A DNA stretch of 64,000 bases from a virus. The stretch lies in IMG/VR virus record IMGVR_UViG_3300020438_004435; one strand, given 5' to 3'. Each line of letters starts with the position of its first letter. Position 1 is the first letter of the stretch. Of the stretch, positions 34,709 to 51,265 are shown piece after piece. The translations under genes and the position numbers were made by a program. The notes under the pieces were generated by a model, which was given only the letters and a program-made list of their open reading frames with translations, was not told the origin of the DNA and made no database searches.

Positions 34709-34891
34709 TTACTTTTTGCTTTCTTCAACAGAAGCTTTTCTATATTCAGTAACCAATTTCTTGATCTCACCTAAAGATTTTCTAGCTCTCTGTGCAGCTG
34801 CTTTATTACCTTTTTCATTAAATTTTCTATGGTTTTCTTGAAATACTTCCCAAAGATTATCTAAATTTGTGTATAAATCTACTGTACTCAT
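34709..34891 (-). CDS. histone H1-like nucleoid protein (Hc1 type, Bacteroidota-like)
   Basis: KGNKAAAQRARKSLGEIKKLVTEYRKASVEESKK. Confidence 0.8.
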   Translation of the reverse strand: MSTVDLYTNLDNLWEVFQENHRKFNEKGNKAAAQRARKSLGEIKKLVTEYRKASVEESKK

Positions 34892-34937: not shown

Positions 34938-35621
34938 TTATTTTTCCATCTGTTTATAATCGCGCAGATAATGTTTTACCATTCCTATATAATCTGCTGC
35001 TTTAGTTAATTTTGATTGAACCCATGCTTCTAATTGTGCTTCATCCTCAACCATATTATAGATATCCTTAGAATATCTATTAATTTTTCTCATCTGAGCT
35101 CTTACCATTCTTCCTTCATAATCCATTTCAGAATCCTTCATCATTGATCCATCTGGCATTTTATGATATCCATCTGTTGGGTCTTCATCCTGTGCTTTAA
35201 TAACTCCAACCTCTGGACCTTTTTGAAATTTATTCATATATTTCATACCAGTTGATATCGCTCCGGATTCCTTTATATATTTTCCTGATGCACCTTTTTT
35301 CTTTACCTGACCACCTCTTCTCATTGCATCCCTATAATTATTCTTTAACTTTTCAGAAAAATTACTAGCTGCTAATTTAGATAATTTAGTAGATGTAGAC
35401 AATCCTTTTAATGAATTTCTAAATATTTGCCATGTTTTACCACCATAATTTTGGTTTTTTGCCTTATGTTTTGGTATCCCTTCATATTCCTTGAGTTCAT
35501 CCTCACTAGTGCCGCCAGGTGATTTTAATTTTTTACCTTTAGTAGTATGAGTATAGCCACAACTTTCTAAAAATTGTATTAATTCCTCATTAACGATTCT
35601 ATGTATGTCTTTCTTTTTCAT
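34938..35621 (-). CDS. putative internal head protein (modular)
   Basis: LxE-separated modules; YHKMPDG and LEAWVQSKLTKAADY motifs. Confidence 0.6.
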   Translation of the reverse strand: MKKKDIHRIVNEELIQFLESCGYTHTTKGKKLKSPGGTSEDELKEYEGIPKHKAKNQNYGGKTWQIFRNSLKGLSTSTKLSKLAASNFSEKLKNNYRDAMRRGGQVKKKGASGKYIKESGAISTGMKYMNKFQKGPEVGVIKAQDEDPTDGYHKMPDGSMMKDSEMDYEGRMVRAQMRKINRYSKDIYNMVEDEAQLEAWVQSKLTKAADYIGMVKHYLRDYKQMEK

Positions 35622-35647
35622 TTAATATAAATAGTAGTAATCACCTT

Positions 35648-36940
35648 TTAACGCTCATTATTATCGATTTTTGTGTTTTTAACATGTTCAACCCTTATTT
35701 TAATCTGTGGCTTGTAATGATCCGGTGTTCTATCATCAATACCAAAGAATTCAGATTTATCCTGATCCATTCTTATAATAAATTCTAAATCATTAAGGTT
35801 CATCATAATTTGGCCTGTAGTAGATAATATATCCGTTTTATTAGGATTCTTTACCATATCTGCATTTCTAAATGGATTGTTTCTCATATTATCAACTGGC
35901 CAGTAACCACTAAGACCATCTAGTATATCATTAGGTTTCTTTGCCTTATTTAATACCTTTTGAGCTATTGCCCACCTTATTTCAGATGATGATTTACTAG
36001 GTCCAGATGTATATCCAGAATCTTTATATGCATATCCATGATTAGTTCTAGCATGATTAAATTTTCTATTTAATTTTTTTAGGATTGGTTGATGTTCTGA
36101 TGTCAATTCTATAGCAAATGAAGCTTTTGGTGTAGCTATAAATGTATGACCTTTTACTCCTACATCTATTTTATCTTCTCCTGTATAATTAACTATTGAT
36201 TCCATTGCAGCAGCAGGACTCTTATAACTTAAAGCCTTACGTATTTTTAATCCATCCTCAGATGGTTTACCTTTTTTCTTTGCAATCTTCTTTTCTTTTT
36301 CATCTGCGTTTACCATAAGAGCTGAATTAACTATTCCTATACCAAAATTATTCATTCCTTCAGACCAATCAGTATCTTTATCTAGAATATAAACTAATTC
36401 CACATCTCCTAGAAGCTCTCTGACTATAGATACTTTAGCCGTATAAGCTCTATCTCTATTTTTAGCTAGTAATACCTTACCATCTAATACGCTATGTGTT
36501 ATAATGCATTCATTTAAGTCTTTTGATTCATTAGTCTTTATATATTTTGTATACCTTTTCCAATTCCTTTCCGCTCTATGTGCAGCTTTTTCATATGGAT
36601 TATTTGCATATCCTTTTTCTCTATATAATTCAAACTTTTTTCGGTCTTGTGTAGCATGAGTATATTCATGAAGTAAGGCTTTAATTATTTCCTCTACATT
36701 AGTCATCCTAGGTGTATACAAATATATTTTATTTTTATCCCAATCATATTCAGCATGTGGATTTGCTTCTCCAGTAGCCTGTTGATCTCCACTAAGTCTA
36801 GCATAGATATTCGTATGAAATTCTACCTTTGGTATGCCTCTTTTGGCACTACCTAAATTTCTTACAATAAAAGGATACACCTTATCTACTGTATCCTGTT
36901 TATTAAATCCTTCATTTAATATGTCTTTTAGTTTTATCAT
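35648..36940 (-). CDS. leader + HExxH metallopeptidase-like domain + Ntn-hydrolase-like domain
   Basis: MIKLKDILNE leader; LLHEYTH; LNE-CIIT...AKNRD...SEGMN..GI.NSAL. Confidence 0.7.
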   Translation of the reverse strand: MIKLKDILNEGFNKQDTVDKVYPFIVRNLGSAKRGIPKVEFHTNIYARLSGDQQATGEANPHAEYDWDKNKIYLYTPRMTNVEEIIKALLHEYTHATQDRKKFELYREKGYANNPYEKAAHRAERNWKRYTKYIKTNESKDLNECIITHSVLDGKVLLAKNRDRAYTAKVSIVRELLGDVELVYILDKDTDWSEGMNNFGIGIVNSALMVNADEKEKKIAKKKGKPSEDGLKIRKALSYKSPAAAMESIVNYTGEDKIDVGVKGHTFIATPKASFAIELTSEHQPILKKLNRKFNHARTNHGYAYKDSGYTSGPSKSSSEIRWAIAQKVLNKAKKPNDILDGLSGYWPVDNMRNNPFRNADMVKNPNKTDILSTTGQIMMNLNDLEFIIRMDQDKSEFFGIDDRTPDHYKPQIKIRVEHVKNTKIDNNER

Positions 36941-37293
36941 TTTTTCCATCTGGTTGTGCTAAACCAATAAGCTAATATAATTCTATTTAGTTTCTTACCA
37001 TTAGCTCCAAACTGGTGTTTATCTAAATAATTGTCTTTGTGCGCAGGCCAGATATCATCCTCTGTTTTAATAAAGTTATTAAGTAATTTCATCTCTCTCC
37101 TCCAATAACTAGTTGATGGATCCTTGATGTCTGCATTATCTTTATGGATATAAGGATTATGGGGAGGATGGGTTGCTGCCCACTTCAAAATCTTTTTACC
37201 TGTCGCAGGATCATATTTAGCTGTTTTGATTATCTTATCTAAGGTACCCCACTTTATATCGCTTTCATTTAATATGTCTATTAGTTTTATCAT
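36911..37293. repeat. 30-bp direct repeat encoding the MIKL(K/I)DILNE leader
   Basis: 36911-36940 and 37264-37293 differ at one base. Confidence 0.8.
36937..37293 (-). CDS. LxE-leader protein, unknown function
   Basis: MIKLIDILNE. Confidence 0.7.
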   Translation of the reverse strand: MIKLIDILNESDIKWGTLDKIIKTAKYDPATGKKILKWAATHPPHNPYIHKDNADIKDPSTSYWRREMKLLNNFIKTEDDIWPAHKDNYLDKHQFGANGKKLNRIILAYWFSTTRWKK

Positions 37294-37814
37294 TATTTTA
37301 CCAAGCTAGTTACAATTTTTACTTTTGGATATTTTTTCTTTAATTTATCTACTGCTTTTATATTTTTAGGACTATCATCCATAAAGTATATCGGATCATA
37401 CCCTTTTAATATTTCAGCTTCAATATAATCTGCTTTGTCTTGAGGATTTGCACTTCCTAATGGTACTACATAAGGATTGATGCCTATTGTTCTAAAAAAA
37501 TGATTGATAGGTGCACCTAATCGTCTAGCTGTAAGTATCGTTACTTTCCTACCACCTTTCTTTAATTGTTTACGTAATAAGTCTACATTCTTTTTAATTA
37601 GTCTAGGATTACGTAATTTTCTATCGAAATCTCTGAAATCATATTCTTCACCATCTTTTAATGTATGGACGGCAAATTCTGCAGGATCTAATTTATCTAC
37701 TTCCTTTCCATTGAGTGTTACATATACCCATGAATCTGATTTAGCTAATGTATCATCAAAATCAAAGATACTTAACATTCGTGCTTCGAATAATATATCT
37801 TTTAACTTAATCAT
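37293..37814 (-). CDS. HAD-family phosphatase with LxE leader
   Basis: MIKLKDILFE; FDFDDTL, ILTAR, K, FMDDS. Confidence 0.8.
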   Translation of the reverse strand: MIKLKDILFEARMLSIFDFDDTLAKSDSWVYVTLNGKEVDKLDPAEFAVHTLKDGEEYDFRDFDRKLRNPRLIKKNVDLLRKQLKKGGRKVTILTARRLGAPINHFFRTIGINPYVVPLGSANPQDKADYIEAEILKGYDPIYFMDDSPKNIKAVDKLKKKYPKVKIVTSLVK

Positions 37815-38293
37815 TACTTACCTTTTCTCCACGTTCCACCATTTTTCTTATATATTTTTGCTGCGAATGCATTTGCATAAGCTGATGGATAAACCTTATA
37901 TTTTTTCTTAGCTTGGGATTTTGCATACGACCATTTGGCCGCATCAGATGGTATATTCTTTTCTATTAATCTATTGATTTCTTTAAGAAATGTTTCGTTT
38001 TTAGGATCCGTGTTAATCATTTTAGGACTTTTAGAAGGTTTACCTTTACCAGAATAGGCTTTTCTTTTTCTTCTTGTAGCAGATTCCTTATCCTTTTTAC
38101 TCATTGAAGCTGCCTTAGATTTTTTAACACATTTAGGATAAGCTCTTTTACCACCAGATCTTGACTTCTTACCTGCCGATGCTCCACATTCAGGATGCTT
38201 ACCACTTTTAGTTTTTCTAGATACATCAACCCATTTTTCCTTAAACCATTTACCTAATCCACCCTGAACCTCTATTAAATCCATAAGTTTCAT
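37814..38293 (-). CDS. basic conserved phage protein with leader
   Basis: MKLMDLIE; GLGKWFKEKWVD, YPKCV, YPSAYAN. Confidence 0.7.
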   Translation of the reverse strand: MKLMDLIEVQGGLGKWFKEKWVDVSRKTKSGKHPECGASAGKKSRSGGKRAYPKCVKKSKAASMSKKDKESATRRKRKAYSGKGKPSKSPKMINTDPKNETFLKEINRLIEKNIPSDAAKWSYAKSQAKKKYKVYPSAYANAFAAKIYKKNGGTWRKGK

Positions 38294-38295
38294 AA

Positions 38296-38697
38296 TTAGC
38301 TCACATCCATTGATTCATCATAGGTTAATTTAATACCTTGTTTTTTTAGGTCTTTAGCAGCCTTATCTAATTTATCGTGGTCTATATTTCTTAAATATAT
38401 CTTCCAACCTAATAATTTTGATAATGACTCTTCAGCATCTCTCCAACTATCCCAGCCTCTAACCCTTTTCTTTCCATCAATAACAGTTCTATAGAATCTA
38501 CCTCTATCTGTAAACCATATATCTATTGTCTTTATATTAGCTTCATTAACGGGTTTAGCATCTAAAAAAGCTTGATCTACTAAATCTTCATTTTTTACAC
38601 AATTAGGCACTCTTTTACCAAACATTGTTTTTGTGCCCTTTTTGGTATAGCCCTTCCAGCATCTAGTACCTTCTAATATGTCTTTTAATTTAATCAT
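38296..38697 (-). CDS. LxE-leader modular protein
   Basis: MIKLKDILE; CWKGY...VPNCV; internal VNE. Confidence 0.7.
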   Translation of the reverse strand: MIKLKDILEGTRCWKGYTKKGTKTMFGKRVPNCVKNEDLVDQAFLDAKPVNEANIKTIDIWFTDRGRFYRTVIDGKKRVRGWDSWRDAEESLSKLLGWKIYLRNIDHDKLDKAAKDLKKQGIKLTYDESMDVS

Positions 38698-39185
38698 TAT
38701 TTTCCAAATTTTACGTAAGCATTTACCATGTCAGCACCAGCTGCACCTCTATGAGTTTTTATATATGGTCTTGCTGGACCTTTTTGGATTGCTTGTACTA
38801 CCTCTTCCAAACCAAATACTTTACCAGTTTTCGTAATTTGAAAATTTCCATCAACCATCTTTGAAAAGATCATTTTTCCAATTCCTACTGTTTCATTTTT
38901 TTTCATAGCTTTAAGTCTTGTTCTGAGATTGACTCTAAAATTTCTTGCTCTTTGTGAATAGTCTTCATTTAATTTACCTTCAATAACAAAATCACTAAAT
39001 TCACCTATTCTATCATATAAGCCTGCATTATGAGCTAGCCTACCTGTTTTTTTATTCTTCCATGAATTATTACCAATTTTAGTCCAAGGCGAATAACCTC
39101 CACCAGAAGCCTTAGCTCCTTTTTTAGCATTGATAATAGCTTTCATTGCTGATTCTTCATTTAACAATTCCTTTAATTTTATCAT
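38697..39185 (-). CDS. LxE-leader two-module protein
   Basis: MIKLKELLNE; internal GKLNE. Confidence 0.7.
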   Translation of the reverse strand: MIKLKELLNEESAMKAIINAKKGAKASGGGYSPWTKIGNNSWKNKKTGRLAHNAGLYDRIGEFSDFVIEGKLNEDYSQRARNFRVNLRTRLKAMKKNETVGIGKMIFSKMVDGNFQITKTGKVFGLEEVVQAIQKGPARPYIKTHRGAAGADMVNAYVKFGK

Positions 39186-41071
39186 TAGTATTGCTCCATT
39201 CTATCTAATTTAGCCATAAGTTTTTTGAATTCAGCTTTTTTCTTTTTATATTCTTTTTCTTTCTTTTCGATCTCTCTACCATATCTAGTAGCTTTAGGAC
39301 CACCTTCTGGTTCAGCTTCCTGTTCCATATCTTTATGAAGTTGACTTAAGTCTTTTGTAATCATCTTCATATCATATTCTAAATCCATAACAGTATCTTG
39401 CAATTTCCATTTTGCATCTAAATGTTTCCAAACAGATGTAGCTTCGGTCTTTGGTGCTCCACCAGCTCCTGTATAATCCATAATTTCTGAATATAAATCT
39501 TTACCTTTATGTTTACCTTTGTATGTAATTCTATCAGCTTCAATTGGATGAAAACTTCCAGGCATTGATGGTAATTTTATATAAGCTACCTTACCTTTAA
39601 CCTTGTTAACTACACCATATTCTCCGTCATCCATTTTGATAGCATCACCTTTCCGTATCTTAGCTTCTTTTAATTTACCACCTTTAACAATTTTATAGAA
39701 TTGGATAATATCTTTCTTTTCATCTCCAGAGGTTGTAAAATCTTCAACCGATTTTCCTTTTTTAGATATTATTAGTCTAGAGGAATTAGATTTTTTAACT
39801 AATTGATATCCATCCTGATTCGCTATAACACTAAATCTTAATCTTTCTGTTAAATTATTTTCCTTAGCCATTTGAATTTTAGCTGTAGGTATTGAATCAA
39901 TAATCTTTTTAGCCTTTTCAAAATCTTTCTTATCCAATTTCAATGCAGTCATTGTCACAGATAGTCTATTCATCTGAAAACCTTTGATTCCAGCTCTTTC
40001 TAATTCACCTTTCAATTGATTAGGTTTGAAATTTGCTTTGGTTTGTATACCAATCATACTTTCGGTTAATTTGCCTTCTTCTAATTTAGTTATATTTCTA
40101 GCATCTACACCTAACATTTCACCTTTATCCATATTGAGATAGATACCTCCACCTGCTCTCTTCTTCTTTAGAGCATAATCACCAGGACTATATATTGTTC
40201 CATCGATGGTTTGTTTAGTCTTTACTGTAAATCGTTTAGGTAATTTAGCTTCATTAACACCTTCGAAAACTGATTTAATTGATTTACCTCTTAATACATC
40301 TTTACATGCTTTATTAAATGCTTTAAGTGCTTTTGTAGCCAGGCCTTGTTTTCCATCTTGTTTATTTTCAATAGCTATATTTAAGTAACTAGCTACATCT
40401 TCAGCTACTTCATCATCTATTCTATCAAACCTATCTGATAAATCTAGTAATGCGTCTTCAGACATAGTCTTCCAACTAACCTTTGAACCTAGCGTTAATA
40501 ATGGTTTTAGACCTCTTGCCAATTTTTCATTTAATTTGTATATTCTTTCATTTAATTTGTATATTGATAATAAATGTTTGTTTTCTAAGGTAGTAAGTTT
40601 ATTACCTGAACGTTTAATGATTAAATTATCTTTCTTCATCATTACAGCTAATGCTCTACCAAAATCTTTTCCTTGAGGTCCTTTATTAGGAATACTACTC
40701 CATTGTTTTGCTTTTTTATTTGCCCATGCTAACCATACCTGTCTTAATGCGAGAAATAAATATGTGCCATCTCCACGATTATCTTTTAGAGCTTTTAATA
40801 AGATATTCTTTACTGCTGATCTATTTTTATATGCCCATTTCTTAAAGTCTAAATATGCAAACTCGTTAGGAGTATCTTGAAACATTGGTCTTTGTTCATT
40901 TAATTCAGTAATTGATCCATCTGTTGATAATATATCAGATGCTTTAGTCCTACCTGTACCTTTGTTATATGATACACTGTAGTATGTTTTACCATTATAA
41001 TCCTTAACATTTGTTATAACGCCTGGACTACCTAGATATTTTACCTTATCACCTTTCTTAAATTGTTTCAT
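39185..41071 (-). CDS. putative polyprotein of small domains joined by LxE linkers
   Basis: ELNE, KLNE x2, GVNE, KLEE/KLTE, NLTE, KLKE, LYSE junctions. Confidence 0.65.
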   Translation of the reverse strand: MKQFKKGDKVKYLGSPGVITNVKDYNGKTYYSVSYNKGTGRTKASDILSTDGSITELNEQRPMFQDTPNEFAYLDFKKWAYKNRSAVKNILLKALKDNRGDGTYLFLALRQVWLAWANKKAKQWSSIPNKGPQGKDFGRALAVMMKKDNLIIKRSGNKLTTLENKHLLSIYKLNERIYKLNEKLARGLKPLLTLGSKVSWKTMSEDALLDLSDRFDRIDDEVAEDVASYLNIAIENKQDGKQGLATKALKAFNKACKDVLRGKSIKSVFEGVNEAKLPKRFTVKTKQTIDGTIYSPGDYALKKKRAGGGIYLNMDKGEMLGVDARNITKLEEGKLTESMIGIQTKANFKPNQLKGELERAGIKGFQMNRLSVTMTALKLDKKDFEKAKKIIDSIPTAKIQMAKENNLTERLRFSVIANQDGYQLVKKSNSSRLIISKKGKSVEDFTTSGDEKKDIIQFYKIVKGGKLKEAKIRKGDAIKMDDGEYGVVNKVKGKVAYIKLPSMPGSFHPIEADRITYKGKHKGKDLYSEIMDYTGAGGAPKTEATSVWKHLDAKWKLQDTVMDLEYDMKMITKDLSQLHKDMEQEAEPEGGPKATRYGREIEKKEKEYKKKKAEFKKLMAKLDRMEQY

Positions 41072-41700
41072 CTTGGAGTTCTCCTTACTGGTCTGGTCGA
41101 TCTTTTATTAGTATTGACCTTTATATTATTTCTATTTGTATTGACCTTTATATTATTTCTATTTGTATTTACTTTAACATTATTTCTATTTGTATTTACT
41201 TTAACATTATTTCTATTTGTATTGATTTTTACATTATTTCTATTTGTATTAATCTTTACATTATTTCTATTTGTAGATTTTACTTTATTAATTGAAGGTC
41301 TTGGAGTATATGTTCTACCCTTGCCATTATTAAATTTGGATCCTCTAGGATTTCTTACTATTCTTGAATTATTTAATTGAATAGAAACATGTGTGTGAGA
41401 ACTATAAGTGTAAGGGGGTAGTATGGTATACCAATACCACCACGGATATAAATGTGGTACACCATAATAATAATAAAAATTGTTATGGAATCCCCAATAT
41501 GGTAAATCATCATGATAATAAACCTGTGTCGAGTGATCTCTGGAATCACAACATGAATGATCAGATAGACAATGTTGCCCTCTTTCCATTAATTCACAAT
41601 TATGAGCCTGTGAACTGTATGTGCCTTCATAGATTGTGCATCCTGACATCATTGCTAGACTTATTATTATAATTAAATTTTTCATATTATTTTCCTTCAT
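41068..41700 (-). CDS. lipoprotein with Tyr/His-rich core and 9-aa tandem repeat tail
   Basis: Lipobox-like MMSGC; (NRNNVKINT) x6. Confidence 0.7.
   Translation of the reverse strand: MKENNMKNLIIIISLAMMSGCTIYEGTYSSQAHNCELMERGQHCLSDHSCCDSRDHSTQVYYHDDLPYWGFHNNFYYYYGVPHLYPWWYWYTILPPYTYSSHTHVSIQLNNSRIVRNPRGSKFNNGKGRTYTPRPSINKVKSTNRNNVKINTNRNNVKINTNRNNVKVNTNRNNVKVNTNRNNIKVNTNRNNIKVNTNKRSTRPVRRTPR
41111..41274. repeat. 27-bp coding tandem repeat x6
   Basis: Unit GTATTGACCTTTATATTATTTCTATTT with synonymous and conservative variants. Confidence 0.9.
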
Positions 41701-42316
41701 GCATTTTATGATGTTCCCATGCTAAATCCGAAACCACCTTCATAAATTGTTTTCTAGCTTTTTTGTATATTGATTTATGTTTCGATTCCTTTAACCCTCT
41801 TTCAAATTTATCTAGGTCCACAGTTAGAAAGTTTTGTAGTGCTGTAATTTTACTAAATTCAGATCCACCATATTCGCTTACTAATTCAGCATCTCTATCT
41901 AGCATAGTAATTACTCTTTCCATTTCAGCTTCTGCCTTTTTTCTTTTTGCGGTAAGCTGTCGAGCTATATCCATATATTTTTTAGTATCCTTTCCTGCTG
42001 CCTTAGCTGCTTTGTATTTGTCTATATTAGCCAACATTACTAAATTTATTTTAGATACTGCATCATATGCTTTGGATATATCCTTTGCACCTACTTTTGC
42101 TTCTGTCTTCATGCCTAATTTACCTTTATATAATTTAACAAGTCTTGCATTGCCAGCTGATTGATGTTTTCTTAAAAGTCTTTTATGATCTTTATCAGGG
42201 TTAGCTGTAGTATGTTCGTATGGTCCATCCTTATATGTTACAGGCTTACCATCCTTCTTTGCCTTTTTCTTTTTAGCTATAGCAATAGCCGCATTTTGAG
42301 CTATTGATTTCCCCAT
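41687..42316 (-). CDS. basic modular hypothetical protein
   Basis: ORF track; internal KTE and VSE junctions. Confidence 0.65.
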   Translation of the reverse strand: MGKSIAQNAAIAIAKKKKAKKDGKPVTYKDGPYEHTTANPDKDHKRLLRKHQSAGNARLVKLYKGKLGMKTEAKVGAKDISKAYDAVSKINLVMLANIDKYKAAKAAGKDTKKYMDIARQLTAKRKKAEAEMERVITMLDRDAELVSEYGGSEFSKITALQNFLTVDLDKFERGLKESKHKSIYKKARKQFMKVVSDLAWEHHKMHEGK

Positions 42317-43335
42317 TAGTATGCTCGTCCTAAAGTTTTAACATCAACATATGCTTTAGCTTTATCAAGTTTAGATAGTTCCATTTTCAATTTATTGAAT
42401 TCATCTTTAACTTCTTTAGCTTTGTTAGCCATTGATGATTTTTCATAGTCGACGCTATATTTAGCTTGATCTGGTTTATCTTTATACTTGGCTTTAACCG
42501 CTTCTATATTAGCTCCTGCTCGCATATATTCTTCGAATGCTCTAATCATATAATTATATCTATGTCCAATAGTTTTTACTGTATCAGCGTAATATGAATC
42601 TCTTGGAATAAATCCTTGTTTCATTTTAGTAAGCTTTTCTTGTAGAGCTGCTTCATACATTTTAGTAGCTGTTTCTAATAATTTTATTATTGGACCTTTA
42701 CCAGCTTCTCCTGCTTTTATAGTCAATGCTTTTCTATATCTAGCTATATTATCTTGTTTCATTTTTTTAGCGTCCATCATTGCCGTTGCACCTGCTTTTG
42801 CAGCTGCTCGATCTGCGATTTTCTGTTTTGCACCTCTAGCTGCTTCATCTGGATCTAAATGGTATACCTGTGCACCATCAATTTTCATTATATCTTTAAT
42901 AGAAGCAAATCCACGTTTATCTAATCCGATAAATGCTCTGCCTGATCCTGCTCCTGTTCTGATGCCTCTACCTATCCATACTCTTTTACCTTTAATTGTA
43001 ACCGCTAATAGTTGACCTGCTCCTATACGAGTTCTCCAGTCATATCTAGAGGAAGCTGGTATTTCTGTATCTTTTGAAGCTATTACTATATCAATACCTT
43101 TGTTATCTATTCGCGTGTCAGGACCCTTTACCATATCATCAGTAAGTTGATCCCATTGAACTCCATATTGTCTAGCCATATCATCTAAAAATGATTTGTC
43201 TTTACCCCATTTACCTACCTTTCCAAATAATGATGCTATTTTTCTAGATGCAAATTTTTCATTAAGAATTAATTTAGATTCCTTAATAATTGATGTTAAT
43301 TCTTCCTTGATAATTTTTCTAATAATTTTTTTCAT
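42316..43335 (-). CDS. LxE-leader protein, unknown function
   Basis: MKKIIRKIIKEELTSIIKESKLILNE. Confidence 0.7.
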   Translation of the reverse strand: MKKIIRKIIKEELTSIIKESKLILNEKFASRKIASLFGKVGKWGKDKSFLDDMARQYGVQWDQLTDDMVKGPDTRIDNKGIDIVIASKDTEIPASSRYDWRTRIGAGQLLAVTIKGKRVWIGRGIRTGAGSGRAFIGLDKRGFASIKDIMKIDGAQVYHLDPDEAARGAKQKIADRAAAKAGATAMMDAKKMKQDNIARYRKALTIKAGEAGKGPIIKLLETATKMYEAALQEKLTKMKQGFIPRDSYYADTVKTIGHRYNYMIRAFEEYMRAGANIEAVKAKYKDKPDQAKYSVDYEKSSMANKAKEVKDEFNKLKMELSKLDKAKAYVDVKTLGRAY

Positions 43336-43341
43336 AATTTC

Positions 43342-43731
43342 CTAACCCTTAAATATTTGTTTTTTACCGCCATTATATACGTATGCATGGCCTTCAGTTA
43401 TAAGTGCATCATTAATACATATTTGTTTACCATCCTTATCCATAATAAATAGTTCTCCAAGGACTCTACCATATTTACCTAGACCATAAGATTTTAATCT
43501 AAAGTATCCTGGTTTATCACTTACTTCCTCTATTAATTGTTTATTTCTTGCTTTAGCAGCTAGACCTAATTTTTTTTCTTCAAGGTCTCTTGTTCGGCTT
43601 TCCCATGCATCAAGACCTTTATATCTGATTCTTTTTTTGACCCAAATATCAAACCCTACGTCAATCATTGCATCAACCGTATCACCATCAACTACTCTAT
43701 CTAACTTTGCTCTGTAAATATACTTTTCCAT
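43342..43731 (-). CDS. thermonuclease (SNase family)
   Basis: RVVDGDTV, RIRYKGLDAWE, GKYGRVLG, LITEGHA. Confidence 0.9.
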   Translation of the reverse strand: MEKYIYRAKLDRVVDGDTVDAMIDVGFDIWVKKRIRYKGLDAWESRTRDLEEKKLGLAAKARNKQLIEEVSDKPGYFRLKSYGLGKYGRVLGELFIMDKDGKQICINDALITEGHAYVYNGGKKQIFKG

Positions 43732-46700
43732 TATTTCCCTAAAACTATTCTTCTATTATATATTACGTTATTATATTCAATGTATAAATTATATACTCCT
43801 GGTTTATAATTTGCAATATCAATTGGCTCTTTAACATCCTTAATAAACATTATATTATTACCTAACATATCAGTAATACCAACATCAAATGAGCCTTTTG
43901 CCTCTATTATAAATAGGCCTTTTGTAGGATTAGGATATATTTTTATGCTATTTCTATCAATTAGATCTGTAGTAGATAAGGGATCTCCAAATGCACAATT
44001 ATTATATTGTGATTGACAAAAGTTATCCCATTGATTGTTTAAGCAATAAGGATCTACCTCATATACTACCCATGCATAACAGGTATCATTTAACCAATAC
44101 GGATTTCCAGCTCCTGTTACTGTATTTAGGTCATAGTATAAACAGCTACCATCATCAGTATTGGCTAGTGGATCATAATTGTTAACTATTACAGTATTAA
44201 ATCCTGGAATATAGTTTGGATAAGTATTATATAAATAACCTTGAAAGTCATAATCATCTGTACATCCGTAAACTGTTGCAATACAAGTTCCATTATCTAC
44301 ATTTGCTAAAGGATCATAATTAAATGCTGTTGAATCAGTACAACCAAATATCTGAGCTATACAAGGATCTGATACATCTGTTGATGATACCTGATTTGTA
44401 TTACAGGGTGCGCAATAATTAAGAGCTGGTAATCCATCTCCATTAAAATCATTACCTTGACCATCATCCATACATCCATATATAAATGGTACACAAACAT
44501 TAGCTGGTTGTGTATTTGCTAATGGATTATAATTAAACATTGTAGTATCCATGCATCCATAAACAAAAGGTATGCAAGATCCATTGTCTACATTTGCTAG
44601 TGGATTGTAATTAAACATTGTAATATCCATACATCCAAACACTTTTGTTATACATGTTCCATTTTCTGTATTTGCTAATGGATTATAATTAAGTGCTGGC
44701 AATCCATCTCCATCATAATCAATAACAATTCCATCATCCATACATCCTAATACTACTCCTATACAACTACCATCATCAATATTTGCTAGAGAATTATAAT
44801 TGAATGATATTGGATTCATACATCCATATACCGCTAGATCTGTACAGCTTCCATTATCGTAGTCTGCAGTAAATCCTTGAGTCCAGAATTGAAGATACAA
44901 TGGATCAGTACAACCTGGATTATAATAACATGAGCCATCTAATGTATTTGCTAGAGGGTTATAATTAGCTGCAGTTGCATCTGTACATCCATATATAAAT
45001 GGAATACATGTCCCATTATCAGTATTAGCTGCTGGATTATAATTCCACATTGTAGAATCCATACAACCATATATAAATGGTATACAACTACCATCGGCTA
45101 AATTAGCTTGTGGGTTATAGTTAAATTGTGTAGCATCCATACATCCATATATAACGGAATCAATACACGAGCCATCATCATAATCAGCTGTAAATCCTTG
45201 ATTCCAAAATTGTATAAAATTAGGATCAGTGCATCCAGGAGCATAATAACAAGAACCATCTGTTGTATTTGCAAGTGGATTAAAATTAGCAGCTGTCATA
45301 TCCATACACCCATATACAAAAGGAATGCAGGTTCCATTATCCGTATTGGCTAGTGGATTATAGTTAAACATAGTAGTATCCATACAACCATAAATATATG
45401 GAACACAGGACCCATTATCAATATTCGCATTAGCATTATAGTTGAACATTGTATTATCCATACAACCATATAATACAGAATCAACACAACTACCATCATC
45501 AAAATCCGCTACAAAACCTTGCGTATAAAATTGTAGGAAATTTGCATCAGTACAACCTGGATTATAGTAACAACTATTATCATTCGTATTTGCTAATTGA
45601 TCCCAATTTGCCGCAAGAGGATCAGTACAGCCGTATATAAATGGAACACATGTTCCGTTATCAGTATTGGCTAATGGATTATAATTCCACATTGTAGAAT
45701 CTGTACATCCATAGATATATGATACACAGCTGTTATCATTAGTATTAGCGTTAGGGTCATAATTTAACGCAGTAGGATCGGTACAACCATATATAAATGG
45801 TATACAGGTACCATTATCTGTATTGGCTAGAGGGTCATAATTAAATGCTGTTGTATCTGTGCAACCATAAATAAAAGGTTCACAACTTCCATTATCTGTA
45901 TTGGCTAATATATCATAATTCCACATAGTAGGATCAGTACAACCATATATAAATGGTATACATGAACTATCACTAGTATTTGCAAATACATCATAATTCC
46001 ACATCAATGGATCTATACATCCATAAATAAATGGAATACAACTTCCGTCATTAGTGTTTGCTAATGAATCATAATTATACATTGTAGAATCGGTACAGCC
46101 GTAAATATAAGGTATGCATGAACCATCATCTGTATTTGCTAATATATTATAATTTAATGCCGTTGAGTCTGTACATCCTAATTGTTCTGCTATACAACTT
46201 CCATCGTCTGTATTTGCTAAGGCATTATAATTTATAGCAGTTGAATCTGTACATCCATATAGGAAAGGTATGCATGTTCCATCATTTGTATTTGCTAATG
46301 GATCATAATTTAACATTGTAGAATCTGTACATCCATAAACATAAGGTAGGCATGAACCATTATCAGTATTGGCGGTTATATCGTAGTTCCACATTGTAGA
46401 GTCCATACAACCATATATTACTGGAATACATGAATAATCTTCTGTATTACAAAAAGAACAATAATTAAATGCTGCTGGATCCAAACATCCAAATACTTTT
46501 GTTATACATGGATCTGTTGTATCAACTACAGAGGTCCATTGAACTGTAGCATATTGATCGAAATTAAACATAGTTGAATCAGTACAACCAAATATTGCAT
46601 ATGTACTACAAGATCCATCATTAAAGTCTGCAACGTATCCTTGTGTATGATATTCTAGATAAGCTGGATCAGTACATCCAGGATTAAAATAACAAGATGT

Positions 46701-48851
46701 ATCTGATGTATTTGCTAATGGGTTATAATTTACTGCTAATGGATTAGTACATCCGAATACTCTCGGTATGCAAACATTACCACAAAGAGCGGTTCCAGTA
46801 TAATAATGTTGATATAGGTTATATTCTAAAATTGGATCAGTATAAGGATTAGTTCCACCTGTTGCAATAACAGTTCCTATAGGATTTATTATTGCAAACA
46901 TACATTGTTCCGATGTGGTTTGGGAGTTACCAAATGAGTAGAAAAATACTTTTACTTCGTGTGCTGTATTCAAAGGTATAGCAGTAGTAAATGTTGAACC
47001 GGTATCAACAGTGAAAGGACCCCAATGATTATTACCTTGAGTTACTACTAAAAATGATCCTGCCCATCCATTACCTGCCCAATCAGTTAAAACCAAAGTA
47101 TTAAGACAACCAGGATTTAACTGCATGCTAGTTACAGTTGGATCATAATTAAATGCTGCTGGATCTGTACAACCATAAGTGTGAGGTGTTATACAGAATG
47201 TGGTGTCCATCTGATTAGCAAGAGGATTATATTCTACAAAATTAGGATTAGTACATCCTACAATTAAATTTGTTATACAGCTATTTACGGTTCCGGTATC
47301 AGAATAATTATATCCAAAATCTCCTCCTCCCATCGAAATAGTATCACAGTCAGTATATACTATCCATTCTCCATCTATACCACCAAATTGAGCTCCACCC
47401 AATCCATCACCGTATGAATCATTTATTTGAAACTCAATAGGCATTCCATTATCTATACAGATTTCTTGTGTTACTATTGCTCCTGTAGGAAATCCTGAAT
47501 ATGTTCCTTGTGTAACTTGAGTATGTATTCCAACGGAGTCAAATAATATCCATCCTGTTTCATTAGCATATTGATCTAACATTATTTCGATTGTTAGTTT
47601 TGTTTTTCCTGGAGAACATACAATGCCTCCTCCACCTACACATGTTCCATCATCTTGAGTTGCTGCTGGATTATAGTTAGTTGATGTTGAATCCATACAA
47701 CCTGTAATAAATAAACAGCTACCATCATCTAATCCTGCTGTATCAACATAATTTATTGCTAGTGAATCGGTACAACCTTCGATGTATTCACAAGGTGAAA
47801 TATACCAATAATCCCCTACTGTAACAGGAGCATATAATCCACCACTAGGATCAAAAGTCCAGATATTTCCATCAGCTTGTGATTGATTTCTTACTACATA
47901 AACTAGAATAGCGGGACTATTGCAATTTTGTGGCCAGTCAATACCATCAACAAAATACTCGTTACCATCTAACCATATTTTATTTCCTACATCCCATGCT
48001 GTTATATTACCAATCCAATCCATAAAGGATATACCAAAGTAGTTTGCAGTCCATTGTTGAGTGTTACAAGTTCCACCTGCAGCTACATATCCACTTACAA
48101 AACCTTGAGTAGCAGTTGAATCATAATTGTAAGCTATAGGATCTTGACAACCGAATATATAAATACAAAGTCCATTGTCTTGAGTAGCAAGTGAGTCATA
48201 ATTTTCTGCAATAGTGTCCATACAACCATAGAGGTATGTACAGCTTCCATCATTACCAGTAGCCAAAGAATCATAATTTTCTGCAATACTATCCGTACAA
48301 CCCCAGATTGGAGGGTTACCTATTTCTACATCATCTATAGCAATATCACTAGTCCAACTAATTCCTGTTTCTGCTTCGAATGATACTAAAAAATTACCCA
48401 CTAAACCTAAACTGTCGAGTGGGTATGCTTTGAAAAGCCAAAAATCTCCTTGATCACCCACGATTGAATCTAAATGAAACCATCCATTATCATCGTGAAT
48501 AAAAATATCTAGACGACCCATGTCGTCTCCATACATATGATACCAGAATTTTAATGCTTGACCTGGTGTTCCTGATATATCGAATGAATCGGTTTGGCAT
48601 ACAAATAATTTTTCTGGATGATTAGGAACAGATGATTCTACATACCAGTAATTACCACCACCTGTCATATCATCCGAAGGGCCTGTATTTACCGACCAAG
48701 TAGGACCTGAATTTAATATCCAATCACCATCATCGTCTTGTATGTTTTCTAAATCTCCACCGGTATCAAAATTTTCTATCCATGGAAATGAGGTTATTTG
48801 TGTATGACCTAATAAAGGTATCAGTAGTAGTAGTAGTATTAATTTTTTCAT
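43731..48851 (-). CDS. giant secreted protein: MAM-like domain, about 38 GC(T/M)D...NY...ANxxxGSC repeats, T9SS type A CTD
   Basis: Signal peptide; FWYHMYG..MGRL...DIAIDDV (MAM); C-terminal IYPNP...DMLG...GVYNL...RIVLGK. Confidence 0.85.
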   Translation of the reverse strand: MKKLILLLLLIPLLGHTQITSFPWIENFDTGGDLENIQDDDGDWILNSGPTWSVNTGPSDDMTGGGNYWYVESSVPNHPEKLFVCQTDSFDISGTPGQALKFWYHMYGDDMGRLDIFIHDDNGWFHLDSIVGDQGDFWLFKAYPLDSLGLVGNFLVSFEAETGISWTSDIAIDDVEIGNPPIWGCTDSIAENYDSLATGNDGSCTYLYGCMDTIAENYDSLATQDNGLCIYIFGCQDPIAYNYDSTATQGFVSGYVAAGGTCNTQQWTANYFGISFMDWIGNITAWDVGNKIWLDGNEYFVDGIDWPQNCNSPAILVYVVRNQSQADGNIWTFDPSGGLYAPVTVGDYWYISPCEYIEGCTDSLAINYVDTAGLDDGSCLFITGCMDSTSTNYNPAATQDDGTCVGGGGIVCSPGKTKLTIEIMLDQYANETGWILFDSVGIHTQVTQGTYSGFPTGAIVTQEICIDNGMPIEFQINDSYGDGLGGAQFGGIDGEWIVYTDCDTISMGGGDFGYNYSDTGTVNSCITNLIVGCTNPNFVEYNPLANQMDTTFCITPHTYGCTDPAAFNYDPTVTSMQLNPGCLNTLVLTDWAGNGWAGSFLVVTQGNNHWGPFTVDTGSTFTTAIPLNTAHEVKVFFYSFGNSQTTSEQCMFAIINPIGTVIATGGTNPYTDPILEYNLYQHYYTGTALCGNVCIPRVFGCTNPLAVNYNPLANTSDTSCYFNPGCTDPAYLEYHTQGYVADFNDGSCSTYAIFGCTDSTMFNFDQYATVQWTSVVDTTDPCITKVFGCLDPAAFNYCSFCNTEDYSCIPVIYGCMDSTMWNYDITANTDNGSCLPYVYGCTDSTMLNYDPLANTNDGTCIPFLYGCTDSTAINYNALANTDDGSCIAEQLGCTDSTALNYNILANTDDGSCIPYIYGCTDSTMYNYDSLANTNDGSCIPFIYGCIDPLMWNYDVFANTSDSSCIPFIYGCTDPTMWNYDILANTDNGSCEPFIYGCTDTTAFNYDPLANTDNGTCIPFIYGCTDPTALNYDPNANTNDNSCVSYIYGCTDSTMWNYNPLANTDNGTCVPFIYGCTDPLAANWDQLANTNDNSCYYNPGCTDANFLQFYTQGFVADFDDGSCVDSVLYGCMDNTMFNYNANANIDNGSCVPYIYGCMDTTMFNYNPLANTDNGTCIPFVYGCMDMTAANFNPLANTTDGSCYYAPGCTDPNFIQFWNQGFTADYDDGSCIDSVIYGCMDATQFNYNPQANLADGSCIPFIYGCMDSTMWNYNPAANTDNGTCIPFIYGCTDATAANYNPLANTLDGSCYYNPGCTDPLYLQFWTQGFTADYDNGSCTDLAVYGCMNPISFNYNSLANIDDGSCIGVVLGCMDDGIVIDYDGDGLPALNYNPLANTENGTCITKVFGCMDITMFNYNPLANVDNGSCIPFVYGCMDTTMFNYNPLANTQPANVCVPFIYGCMDDGQGNDFNGDGLPALNYCAPCNTNQVSSTDVSDPCIAQIFGCTDSTAFNYDPLANVDNGTCIATVYGCTDDYDFQGYLYNTYPNYIPGFNTVIVNNYDPLANTDDGSCLYYDLNTVTGAGNPYWLNDTCYAWVVYEVDPYCLNNQWDNFCQSQYNNCAFGDPLSTTDLIDRNSIKIYPNPTKGLFIIEAKGSFDVGITDMLGNNIMFIKDVKEPIDIANYKPGVYNLYIEYNNVIYNRRIVLGK

Positions 48852-48853
48852 TT

Positions 48854-51265
48854 TTATAAATTCCCTTTAAGTGATATTATGAAATTTCTTCCTGGTGCAG
48901 AAATACCAGATGCGAAAGTTCTGTAGTGTTGATCTAGAATATTTTCAATTCCAAATTGTATTTTAAGGTTATCATTAACCTTGTATTGAGCCGAAGTATT
49001 TAGCGTCCACCAAGAAGGGTAACCTTCATCGGTTCCTAAATCGTCATTATCGACACCGCTAGAATTCATTTCTTCTATATACTTCCATGCAGTGTATATT
49101 CCCCAAATTTTATATTCTAGCTTGCCTGTCTTAATCTTAAATAATGATTTTCCAAATGCAGGAGGTATGTGACCTAGTGGTTCATTATTAGATACATCCC
49201 ATCCTTTTTGCCAAGTAAATGATTCCTCATAGAATAACAAATCTTTGTATAATCTTGATTTTACACCAAATGACCATCCATAAATATATGCCTCAGGTGA
49301 GTTCATTAATGTCTGAACATTTACATCTTCATACTCATGTATTTGAGAATATCCTAAATCTTGTTTTACAATTGCATCCTTCAGGTGTGTATAAAATACG
49401 TTACCTGTACTTTGCATTCTTGGCTTTTTCCAGGTAATACTCATTTCACCATTATATGCATACTCTGGAGTTAGATCCGGATTAGGTATAACCATATTAC
49501 CTTTCTTAACAAATACCTTCCCATAATCATCTATATTTGGATTTCTAAATCCTGATGAAGCTACCCAATCAAATTTCCATTTTTCCGATGGTTTATAAAT
49601 TAAATTAAGATTACCTGTAAGAGCCCCATTATTAAATTCAATCTCATCCGTTACAAATACAGGATCAGTATCTCTAAACACCATATCACCTATAACTCTT
49701 GAATACCTTAATCCAGCATTCCAAACAAAAAATCTATTTACCTCTTTTTTATATGAACTATATAATGCTGCAGTTGATAAATTACTACCACCAGATGGAT
49801 ATCTTGCTTGAGTGCCTTCAGTTGCTGTTGATAATACATTATTATGGGTTAATTCTATTCCATAAACTAATTTATCTAATGAGAAGTCCCAATTAAAACT
49901 AAATACATCTACATCTATATATGTGTTATTATATTCCTCTGATTGATATTTTCTAGTAATCCTATCCTCTTCTATAAATTGATATGCTAATGTAATATTA
50001 TGACTATTAAAGAATTTATTTGTGGTATATGTGTTTATATCTAAAGAAGACATAAATCTTGTTTGAGGTCCATAAGACCATTCACTCCATTTTAATGTTC
50101 CATCCTTATATTCCTGAAGGTTATCATATCTTGGTATATTTGTTGTAGTAGAGAATTGATTGTTAAATCTTACAAAAACATTTTCTGATGTTCTCCATGC
50201 CATGTTGTTTAATATATCTATTTGTCTATATCCTGTGCCGATTTGTATATAAGGATTTTCATTTGATACCATCTGATCATTTTCATCCATATAATAGTTT
50301 ACTAATCCCCAATCACTATATCCATGAGGTCTCCATTGACCCATTTTAAGATCTCCAAATTCCTTAGCTGTTATAGAAAGAAAATTAGCAAAATTATCAC
50401 CACCAATATTATTACTTACATGAAAGGAGTATTCATTGGCTGCAGATCCATATCTAACTTCCGCATTTGTTTTATAGTATGTTTTATCATTTTTACTAAA
50501 TACTGGCTTTTTAGTATAAAAATGAACTACTCCTCCTAATGCATCACTACCATAAATTGTTGATGATGGACCAAAAACCACTTCAACTATTTCTAATGCA
50601 TTTGGATCTACTGTTAAAGCATTTTGTAAATGACCTGAACGATAAATTGCATTATTCATTCGGACTCCATCTACTACCAACAATACTCTATTAGCTTCAA
50701 ATCCTCTAATGATAGGTGAACCTCCGCCTAATTGAGATTTTTGTATAACTACACCTTGATTTGCAGTAAGAAGATCAGCTGTTGTAGATGCATTTGCATT
50801 TTGAATTTGTTTTACATCCAGGGATTGTATTTGGTAGGCTACATTTTCTCGAAGCTCTCTTGCCTTACTAGCTGATATAACGACATCTTCTAAATATTTT
50901 GATGATTGAGCTAATAAGATTACATAATCCTTCTTAGCCATTTCCTCTTTACTAATGTGCCGGGATTCATAACCAATAAAAGATATTGTAATTAATATAA
51001 CATCCGACTTAAATATAGAAAGATCTGCTTGACCATTTATATCTGTAGTAGTTCCTTTGCGTATAGAGTCTTTGAATGTCGTATTATTTCCAGGACTTAT
51101 AAGTAATTGTTTAGATACAATATTAGCAAAAGGAATAGGTTCTAATGTTTGCTGATCCTTTAGCGTTAAGGTTTGTGCGTTAATTGTTTGAGTCATTAGG
51201 AGTAATATTAAAAATACTATATAACCTAATAACAATTTGGAAGATGACCATTTTGTTGTTTTCAT
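48854..51265 (-). CDS. TonB-dependent receptor (Bacteroidota type, heme/iron-receptor-like)
   Basis: Signal peptide, carboxypeptidase-regulatory-like domain, plug (SPIIRGFEANRVLLVVDGV, GPSSTIYGSDALGGV), barrel ending ENILD..Y...PGRNF. Confidence 0.92.
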   Translation of the reverse strand: MKTTKWSSSKLLLGYIVFLILLLMTQTINAQTLTLKDQQTLEPIPFANIVSKQLLISPGNNTTFKDSIRKGTTTDINGQADLSIFKSDVILITISFIGYESRHISKEEMAKKDYVILLAQSSKYLEDVVISASKARELRENVAYQIQSLDVKQIQNANASTTADLLTANQGVVIQKSQLGGGSPIIRGFEANRVLLVVDGVRMNNAIYRSGHLQNALTVDPNALEIVEVVFGPSSTIYGSDALGGVVHFYTKKPVFSKNDKTYYKTNAEVRYGSAANEYSFHVSNNIGGDNFANFLSITAKEFGDLKMGQWRPHGYSDWGLVNYYMDENDQMVSNENPYIQIGTGYRQIDILNNMAWRTSENVFVRFNNQFSTTTNIPRYDNLQEYKDGTLKWSEWSYGPQTRFMSSLDINTYTTNKFFNSHNITLAYQFIEEDRITRKYQSEEYNNTYIDVDVFSFNWDFSLDKLVYGIELTHNNVLSTATEGTQARYPSGGSNLSTAALYSSYKKEVNRFFVWNAGLRYSRVIGDMVFRDTDPVFVTDEIEFNNGALTGNLNLIYKPSEKWKFDWVASSGFRNPNIDDYGKVFVKKGNMVIPNPDLTPEYAYNGEMSITWKKPRMQSTGNVFYTHLKDAIVKQDLGYSQIHEYEDVNVQTLMNSPEAYIYGWSFGVKSRLYKDLLFYEESFTWQKGWDVSNNEPLGHIPPAFGKSLFKIKTGKLEYKIWGIYTAWKYIEEMNSSGVDNDDLGTDEGYPSWWTLNTSAQYKVNDNLKIQFGIENILDQHYRTFASGISAPGRNFIISLKGNL

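Follow-up and report, generated by a model that had tools for sequence, protein, structure and literature searches.

A string of shuffling modules with candidate prohead-protease sites at its joints in a T4-type marine phage

The DNA analysed here is a 64,000-nucleotide (nt) stretch (hereafter, the window) of the IMG/VR virus record IMGVR_UViG_3300020438_004435, in which every gene lies on the minus strand and the GC content is approximately 31%. An open reading frame (ORF) at 39185-41071 on that strand encodes a protein of 628 amino acids (aa) and 71 kDa as a full chain (P0001), which is most likely a concatemer of approximately eight small, basic, independently folding modules. The modules are shuffled among metagenomic relatives, some also occur as proteins of their own, and the joints between them are short and exposed and carry a motif ending in Glu, of the kind cut by the prohead protease gp21 of phage T4. 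On balance, we favour the reading that P0001 is a head-internal polyprotein that would be cut at every joint by a gp21-type protease into products that associate with the DNA and are probably ejected, the joints doubling as recombination points.

Linkers and module layout

A preliminary description of the window had proposed a 628-aa polyprotein at this locus, with its strand unstated and its segments strung on short linkers. The ORF was recovered on the minus strand, with its start codon overlapping the stop codon of the upstream gene (ATGA), and all of the proposed linkers were found at their places, namely ELNE (residues 56-59), KLNE (172-175) followed by RIYKLNE (176-182), GVNE (271-274), KLEE (329-332) followed by GKLTE (333-337), NLTE (406-409), KLKE (466-469), LYSE (526-529), and PKTE (540-543). 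The proposed tandem duplication in the linker DNA is an exact 20-nt repeat (40525-40544 and 40546-40565) at a spacing of 21 nt, which encodes IYKLNE twice.

Module borders were set by mapping all local blastp alignments to relatives. From the N-terminus, and throughout on the minus strand, M1 (40895-41071; residues 1-59) is a small, beta-rich and possibly SH3-like module without an N-terminal leader, ending in ...GSITELNE, and is followed by M2 (40547-40894; residues 60-175), a four-helix module with an isoelectric point (pI) of 10.2. The duplicated linker YKLNE-RIYKLNE (40526-40561; residues 171-182), encoded in the 21-nt tandem repeat, offers two candidate cleavage sites, and its DNA (40525-40565) is 90% like leader-coding DNA at 37263-37282. 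M3 (40250-40525; residues 183-274; KLARGLKPLL...) is helical and ends in FEGVNE, and M3b (40076-40249; residues 275-332; AKLPKRFTVK...) ends in KLEE. The GKLTE linker that follows (40061-40075; residues 333-337) is a second tandem site and fits the consensus joint E-G-K-L-T-E. M4 (39845-40060; residues 338-409; SMIGIQTK...) has a ferredoxin-like beta-alpha-beta arrangement and ends in NNLTE, M5 (39665-39844; residues 410-469) is rare (4 hits) and ends in GGKLKE, and M6 (39485-39664; residues 470-529; AKIRKGDAIK...) is beta-rich, SH3/Tudor/KOW-like, and ends in KGKDLYSE. The spacer IMDYTGAGGAPKTE (39443-39484; residues 530-543) ends in KTE, a non-canonical site with Lys at P3, and leads to M7 (39188-39442; residues 544-628), a helical hairpin with a conserved DMEQEAEPEGGP loop. 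The predicted fragments are all basic (pI 8.0-10.2) and measure 6.4-13.5 kDa, small size and basicity being a trait common to T4 internal proteins.

Module shuffling and stand-alone forms

A search of 5.8 billion proteins yielded 298 relatives of similar length, which had very high scores, yet their best local alignments spanned only 10-40% of P0001. Among 342 metagenomic relatives carrying at least one P0001 module, we counted 99 distinct architectures and 44 different ordered module-neighbour pairs. In the clade closest to P0001, insertions and deletions comprise entire modules and fall precisely on the linkers, and this holds even for P0004, whose shared parts are 94% identical.

As a protein of its own, approximately 108-115 aa long, M2 is very common. 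All 50 of the 50 short M2 proteins carry a leader ending in [LIV]xE immediately ahead of the module (e.g., MKYIKPLNE followed by ARPMFQ), and the stand-alone forms end just short of where the linker of P0001 starts. M7 forms the extreme C-terminus in nearly all cases (best 150 of 290 representative proteins, 74 to 1005 aa long) and also occurs alone behind a leader (MKLKKIVE followed by ASSVWK; MIKLKTILE followed by KSNIWK), while M6 is usually the first module after the leader in relatives. Segments on their own and in other orders, which the preliminary description had proposed to look for, are thus both found, and it is the order that varies and the linkers that are conserved. One metagenomic relative, P0082, starts with MKQFNTELNE followed by M2 and looks like P0001 minus the interior of M1; the 10-residue leader-like peptide left over has a pattern similar to that of the capsid-targeting sequence (CTS) of T4.

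Motif enrichment at joints and avoidance inside modules

A [LIV]xE motif ends within -4 to +3 residues of 414 of the 459 module starts in relatives (90%), compared with 13% for random positions in the same proteins. A joint logo was drawn from 280 distinct joints containing [LIV]xE, P3 and P1 thus being fixed by selection. It showed E at P6, G/E/S at P5, K at P4, L, V, or I at P3 (60, 23, and 15%, respectively), N or T at P2 (44 and 31%, respectively), E at P1 (100%, by selection), and A/G/S at P1' (75%), corresponding to a consensus of E-G-K-[L/V/I]-[N/T]-E followed by A/G/S. Within P0001 itself, 9 of the 11 [LIV]xE motifs fall inside the 97 homology-defined boundary residues (binomial P = 2e-6), and the density of [LIV][NT]E is 1.11 per 100 aa versus 0.19 in the window proteome.

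The same motif is scarce inside several modules, with shuffle statistics that are inflated because the sequences counted are related: none was observed against 17 expected inside M4 (42 distinct interiors), 1 against 24 inside M6, 21 against 214 inside M7 (a ten-fold depletion), and 40 against 83 inside M2. M3 showed no avoidance (40 observed and 47 expected) and M1 had too few sequences to judge, so that depletion was seen in four of the six modules tested. In the 60 other ORFs of the window, which served as a control, [LIV]xE was not depleted (ratio, 1.09), a contrast that remains large despite the inflation. Enrichment at the joints together with avoidance in the folded parts is the pattern to be expected when proteins encounter a protease whose recognition rule is very short.

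Predicted structures and family searches

The AlphaFold2 model of P0001, based on 102 aligned sequences, consisted of separate domains with no global fold (predicted template modelling score, 0.29) and unstructured linkers with a predicted local distance difference test (pLDDT) below 50. It therefore agrees with independent domains on flexible linkers, and a single cooperative fold was not found. Confidence was highest for the four helices of M2 (pLDDT 81-93) and the helical hairpin of M7 (about 90), followed by the helical M3 (about 70), the beta-alpha-beta M4 (about 65), and the small beta domains of M6 and M1 (residues 477-511 and 9-35, respectively; about 60-70). The folds of M3b and M5 had low pLDDT and were poorly modelled because these modules have few homologues.

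The preliminary description had also labelled two segments SH3/KOW-like. The small all-beta domains at residues 9-35 and 477-511 lend this label weak support, and the Foldseek rows to Spt5/NusG KOW and Tudor domains all had E > 0.001. A Foldseek search with the full P0001 model returned weak, generic KOW, Tudor, RRM-like, and occludin-like helical hairpin rows, again all at E > 0.001. M1 and M6, although both beta-rich, showed no sequence similarity to each other. When M2 was modelled alone (pLDDT 71), Foldseek gave E >= 1 and VIA-align gave Z <= 4.2, so that no fold was assignable; the ESM Atlas offered winged-helix domains at template modelling scores below 0.5, which we take as a lead only. 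Scanning the whole protein with Pfam and PHROGs, and five single modules with Pfam, returned nothing significant, and none of the modules had a significant match in the PDB.

Gene cluster and leaders

P0001 lies within an 8.4-kb run of tightly packed genes (34938-43335), which forms an operon with leader-tagged genes. The seven tightly packed genes downstream of it (34938-39185, minus strand) are presumed companion cargo genes. Six of them bear a MIKLKDILNE-type leader (starts at 36949, 37293, 37814, 38293, 38697, and 39185), and the seventh (34938-35621) starts with MKKKDIHRIVNEELIQFLE. The leader-coding DNA is repeated across the genes of the cluster, and another stretch of P0001 linker DNA (39664-39690) is similar to the joint within the gene that follows P0001. 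This following gene (38697-39185, minus strand) encodes two modules joined by FVIEGKLNE followed by DYSQR; its counterpart in a 95%-identical relative (L004 3030-3749) encodes 239 rather than 162 aa, so that gain or loss of modules is evident here as well.

The cluster begins with a gene (42316-43335, minus strand) that has the leader MKKIIRKIIKEEL...LILNE. Its homologues in two related contigs, G002 and G003 (E = 4e-16 and 5e-28), also bear leaders and are situated between the protease and scaffold genes, which links the cluster to head assembly. Each of the relatives has two or three modular genes of the P0001 kind.

Head protease and lineage

The T4 prohead protease, gp21, recognises L/I-x-E and cleaves after the Glu, and the 10-residue CTS sends internal proteins into the prohead and is then cut off (PMC9026906). 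The linker motif of P0001 fits this rule, and the leaders of the stand-alone modules end in the same motif. A gp21-family protease (PF03420) was detected at 99-103 bits (cut-off, 27) in each of three IMG/VR contigs carrying P0001 relatives. Synteny with the window extends to both of the loci compared, G001 and G002, and to a 167-kb ENA contig, and covers, in order, the SNase gene (73-81% identity), the T9SS (type IX secretion system) cargo gene, the modular gene, and the HAD-like gene (72-77%). G001 also contains portal, protease, acidic scaffold, and capsid protein genes in this order, and the last three follow one another in the same order in G002 and G003. The scaffolds of the relatives contain 5.5-7.3 [LIV]xE per 100 aa. 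The capsid protein of these relatives is gp23-like, with matches in 2553 phage records, and by this protein the nearest cultured phages are the Flavobacterium 'immuto' phages.

Directly upstream of the cargo cluster, the region 43731-51265 (minus strand) encodes a TonB-dependent receptor as well as a protein of 1706 aa that combines a MAM domain with a T9SS sorting tail, which supports a host among the Bacteroidota. P0001 is encoded by a large T4-type marine phage, and Bacteroidota are its probable hosts.

Proposed processing and alternative explanations

The preliminary description had read P0001 as a concatemer cut by the prohead protease. The variable order, the stand-alone forms, the linkers fitting the gp21 rule, the avoidance of the motif inside four modules, and the gp21-family protease of relatives all support this reading. 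In it, the P0001 chain would be taken into the prohead along with the neighbouring leader-tagged proteins, and the head protease would cut after the Glu of each linker during maturation, producing the predicted new N-termini QRPMFQDTPNEFAYLDFK, SMIGIQTK, ATSVWK, and similar ones. The small, lysine-rich products would stay with the DNA, like the T4 internal proteins, and would probably be ejected with it, while the linker- and leader-coding DNA would double as the joint at which modules come, go, and change order. What sequence comparison predicts here, rather than shows, is that the chain is cleaved, packaged, and ejected, and that its products may bind DNA or act against host defences.

Several observations weigh against this reading, and the absence of a leader is its main weakness. 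P0001 starts with MKQFKKGDKV, that is, directly with M1 and with no capsid-targeting leader of approximately 10 residues, and it shares this state with its six closest relatives (P0002-P0007), in contrast to the leader in >90% of the relatives. The prohead targeting of P0001 would then have to come from another element, such as the N-terminal beta domain, the constant M7, or the duplicated IYKLNE linker. Two of the proposed sites, LYSE and PKTE, have no aliphatic P3, and the inflation of the avoidance statistics counts on the same side. The 64-kb window contains no protease gene. A tblastn search of 50,697 phage records with P0001 and the neighbouring HAD-like gene gave no match, and no cultured phage with the family was found. 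We also considered the start of the capsid protein, LLNE followed by A, as independent evidence of protease specificity; it is present in G001 and not conserved in G002 and G003, and was rejected as strong evidence.

P0001 could instead be a multi-domain protein that stays uncleaved, its modules working together within a single chain (for instance, to bind nucleic acid multivalently) and the E-G-K-L-T-E stretches being conserved linkers of a flexible or helix-capping kind. We consider this unlikely, if worth keeping in view. The missing leader favours it, as do a low-confidence helix that runs through the 167-195 linker in the AlphaFold2 model and the recurrent frame of an SH3-like N-terminal module and a C-terminal M7, which could mean that the chain works as a unit. 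However, plain linkers would not be expected to retain an aliphatic residue at P3 and a small one at P1' over 44 different ordered neighbour pairs, nor would they match the leader ends of the stand-alone forms, and the avoidance of the motif inside modules would be left unexplained. The last point also bears on a different account, in which the linkers are recombination scars, i.e., leader DNA left by in-frame gene fusions that now serves shuffling alone, as microhomology, and is without function at the protein level. Scars would not give rise to such avoidance. Moreover, the linker consensus E-G-K-L-N/T-E differs from the leader M-I-K-L-K-D-I-L-N-E, and the linkers vary, in DNA and in residue, only within the protease-compatible L/V/I and N/T. 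We hold this account to be improbable, even with the leader-like DNA at 40525-40565, the likeness of the 39664-39690 linker to the joint of the next gene, and the gain and loss of modules exactly at joints in its favour; it is compatible with cutting in the head and does not exclude it.

The chain might also be cut at its linkers in the cytoplasm and not in the head, the enzyme being a host protease or a different phage protease, and the pieces would then act in the producing cell instead of being delivered with the DNA. A leaderless P0001 fits a protein that is not packaged. Nevertheless, the gp21-type head protease is the only Glu-specific protease identified in the lineage, gp21 acts inside the assembled prohead (PMC9026906), and the P0001 gene sits among leader-tagged genes, which makes cytoplasmic cutting very doubtful.

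With processing inside the head as the preferred reading, the locus could further be viewed as a cassette array at the protein level, in which a constant frame (a leader or SH3-like head and a terminal M7) surrounds exchangeable modules, each flanked by a head-protease site whose DNA is the recombination joint, and with which each strain would load and inject its own combination of DNA-associated or anti-defence proteins. We put this forward tentatively, as an extension that may well prove too broad. If true, it would constitute a previously undescribed way for double-stranded DNA (dsDNA) phages to diversify and deliver cargo.

Comparison with known systems and significance

The closest likeness is to the T4 internal proteins IPI, IPII, and IPIII and to Alt (PMC9026906, PMC3012670), which are small, basic, and diverse and have a short leader ending in L/I-x-E that is removed by gp21; the internal proteins of T-even phages form a highly diverse set with only the CTS in common (PMC3012670). 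The same motif, protease family, and leader type occur in the P0001 lineage and neighbouring genes. However, each T4 internal protein has one gene and one leader, whereas the chains described here fuse unrelated modules, up to eight or more of them, and have a site of the cleavage type at each joint; P0001 also has no leader, and its C-terminal M7 is constant. The T4 proteins gp22, gp67, and gp68 are each cut into several fragments and resemble P0001 in having several L/I-x-E sites in one polypeptide (PMC9026906). They differ from it in being scaffold or core proteins, which yield mostly small peptides that exit the head and not shuffling folded modules, and no sequence similarity of P0001 to them was found in the Pfam and PHROGs scans.

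In the phiKZ-like giant phages (201phi2-1, phiKZ, and SPN3US), the prohead protease cuts many head-internal proteins after Glu, some at more than one site (PMC9026906, PMC10052503). Their motif is S/A-x-E, whereas the P0001 family has L/V/I at P3 in 414 of 459 joints and its lineage has a gp23-like capsid protein; in addition, the processed proteins of these phages are not reported as shuffled cassettes with stand-alone module genes. Polyvalent proteins (Iyer et al. 2017, PMC5512222) share with P0001 many unrelated domains and mosaicism, and have been proposed to be delivered with the DNA, sometimes with proteolytic release. With approximately eight modules and 99 architectures, P0001 falls within their range of 2-15 unrelated, mosaic domains. 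Polyvalent proteins, however, contain recognisable enzymatic effector domains and are proposed to be released autoproteolytically by an embedded zincin-like peptidase, whereas in P0001 no known effector family or peptidase domain was detected by Pfam or PHROGs in the whole protein or by Pfam in five modules, and its joints fit the head protease. The polyproteins of RNA viruses are an analogy only: a protease encoded by the virus cleaves one translation product at short conserved sites and so releases separate functional proteins, but they comprise essential replication or structural proteins in a fixed order, and here the modules are accessory and their order is highly variable.

To our knowledge, the loading of the T4 head by leader and protease, the textbook case, is known only for single proteins. 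The literature that we searched covers the T4 CTS system, multi-site processing, and polyvalent autoproteolysis, and no cargo polyprotein jointed by prohead-protease sites was found in it. If strings of modules are indeed loaded and cut, a changeable kit of small proteins would be packed and delivered from one gene and re-sorted by recombination at the joints. This would explain very abundant unannotated proteins of marine phages (hundreds of clusters, with no known family for these modules), allow the virion cargo and mature N-termini of uncultured T4-type phages to be predicted by a sequence rule, and offer T4-based delivery vectors design rules, taken from nature, for packaging several cargoes at once.

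Neighbouring genes

Upstream of P0001, the gene at 41068-41700 (minus strand) encodes a lipoprotein-like product with a signal peptide followed by Cys (MMSGC), in which six C-terminal tandem 27-nt repeats coding NTNRNNVKV are followed by a very basic tail. The gene at 41687-42316 (minus strand) encodes a 209-aa protein that starts with MGKSIAQNAAIAIAKKKK and has no leader. The same module has the leader MAKLKKILEE in P0064 and P0071, which makes this a second leaderless version in the same phage. The T4 late-promoter motif TATAAATA was not enriched in the window (26 matches and 27 expected).

Just downstream of the cluster, a 60-aa ORF at 7555-7737 of L004 (the counterpart of 34709-34891 in the window) has a precomputed match to the Hc1 histone-like family (PF07432), which fits a set of DNA-associated proteins. 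In relatives, a basic protein of approximately 111 aa (MSKFKPRTRNGQ...) is encoded between the protease and scaffold genes (L016 8678-9016 and L017 2036-2371). In a syntenic relative, the modular gene is immediately preceded (L001/L002 7452-9796) by separate genes with DUF5824, Zeta_toxin, and PAP2 domains, enzymes of a type known from the effector sets that phages deliver.

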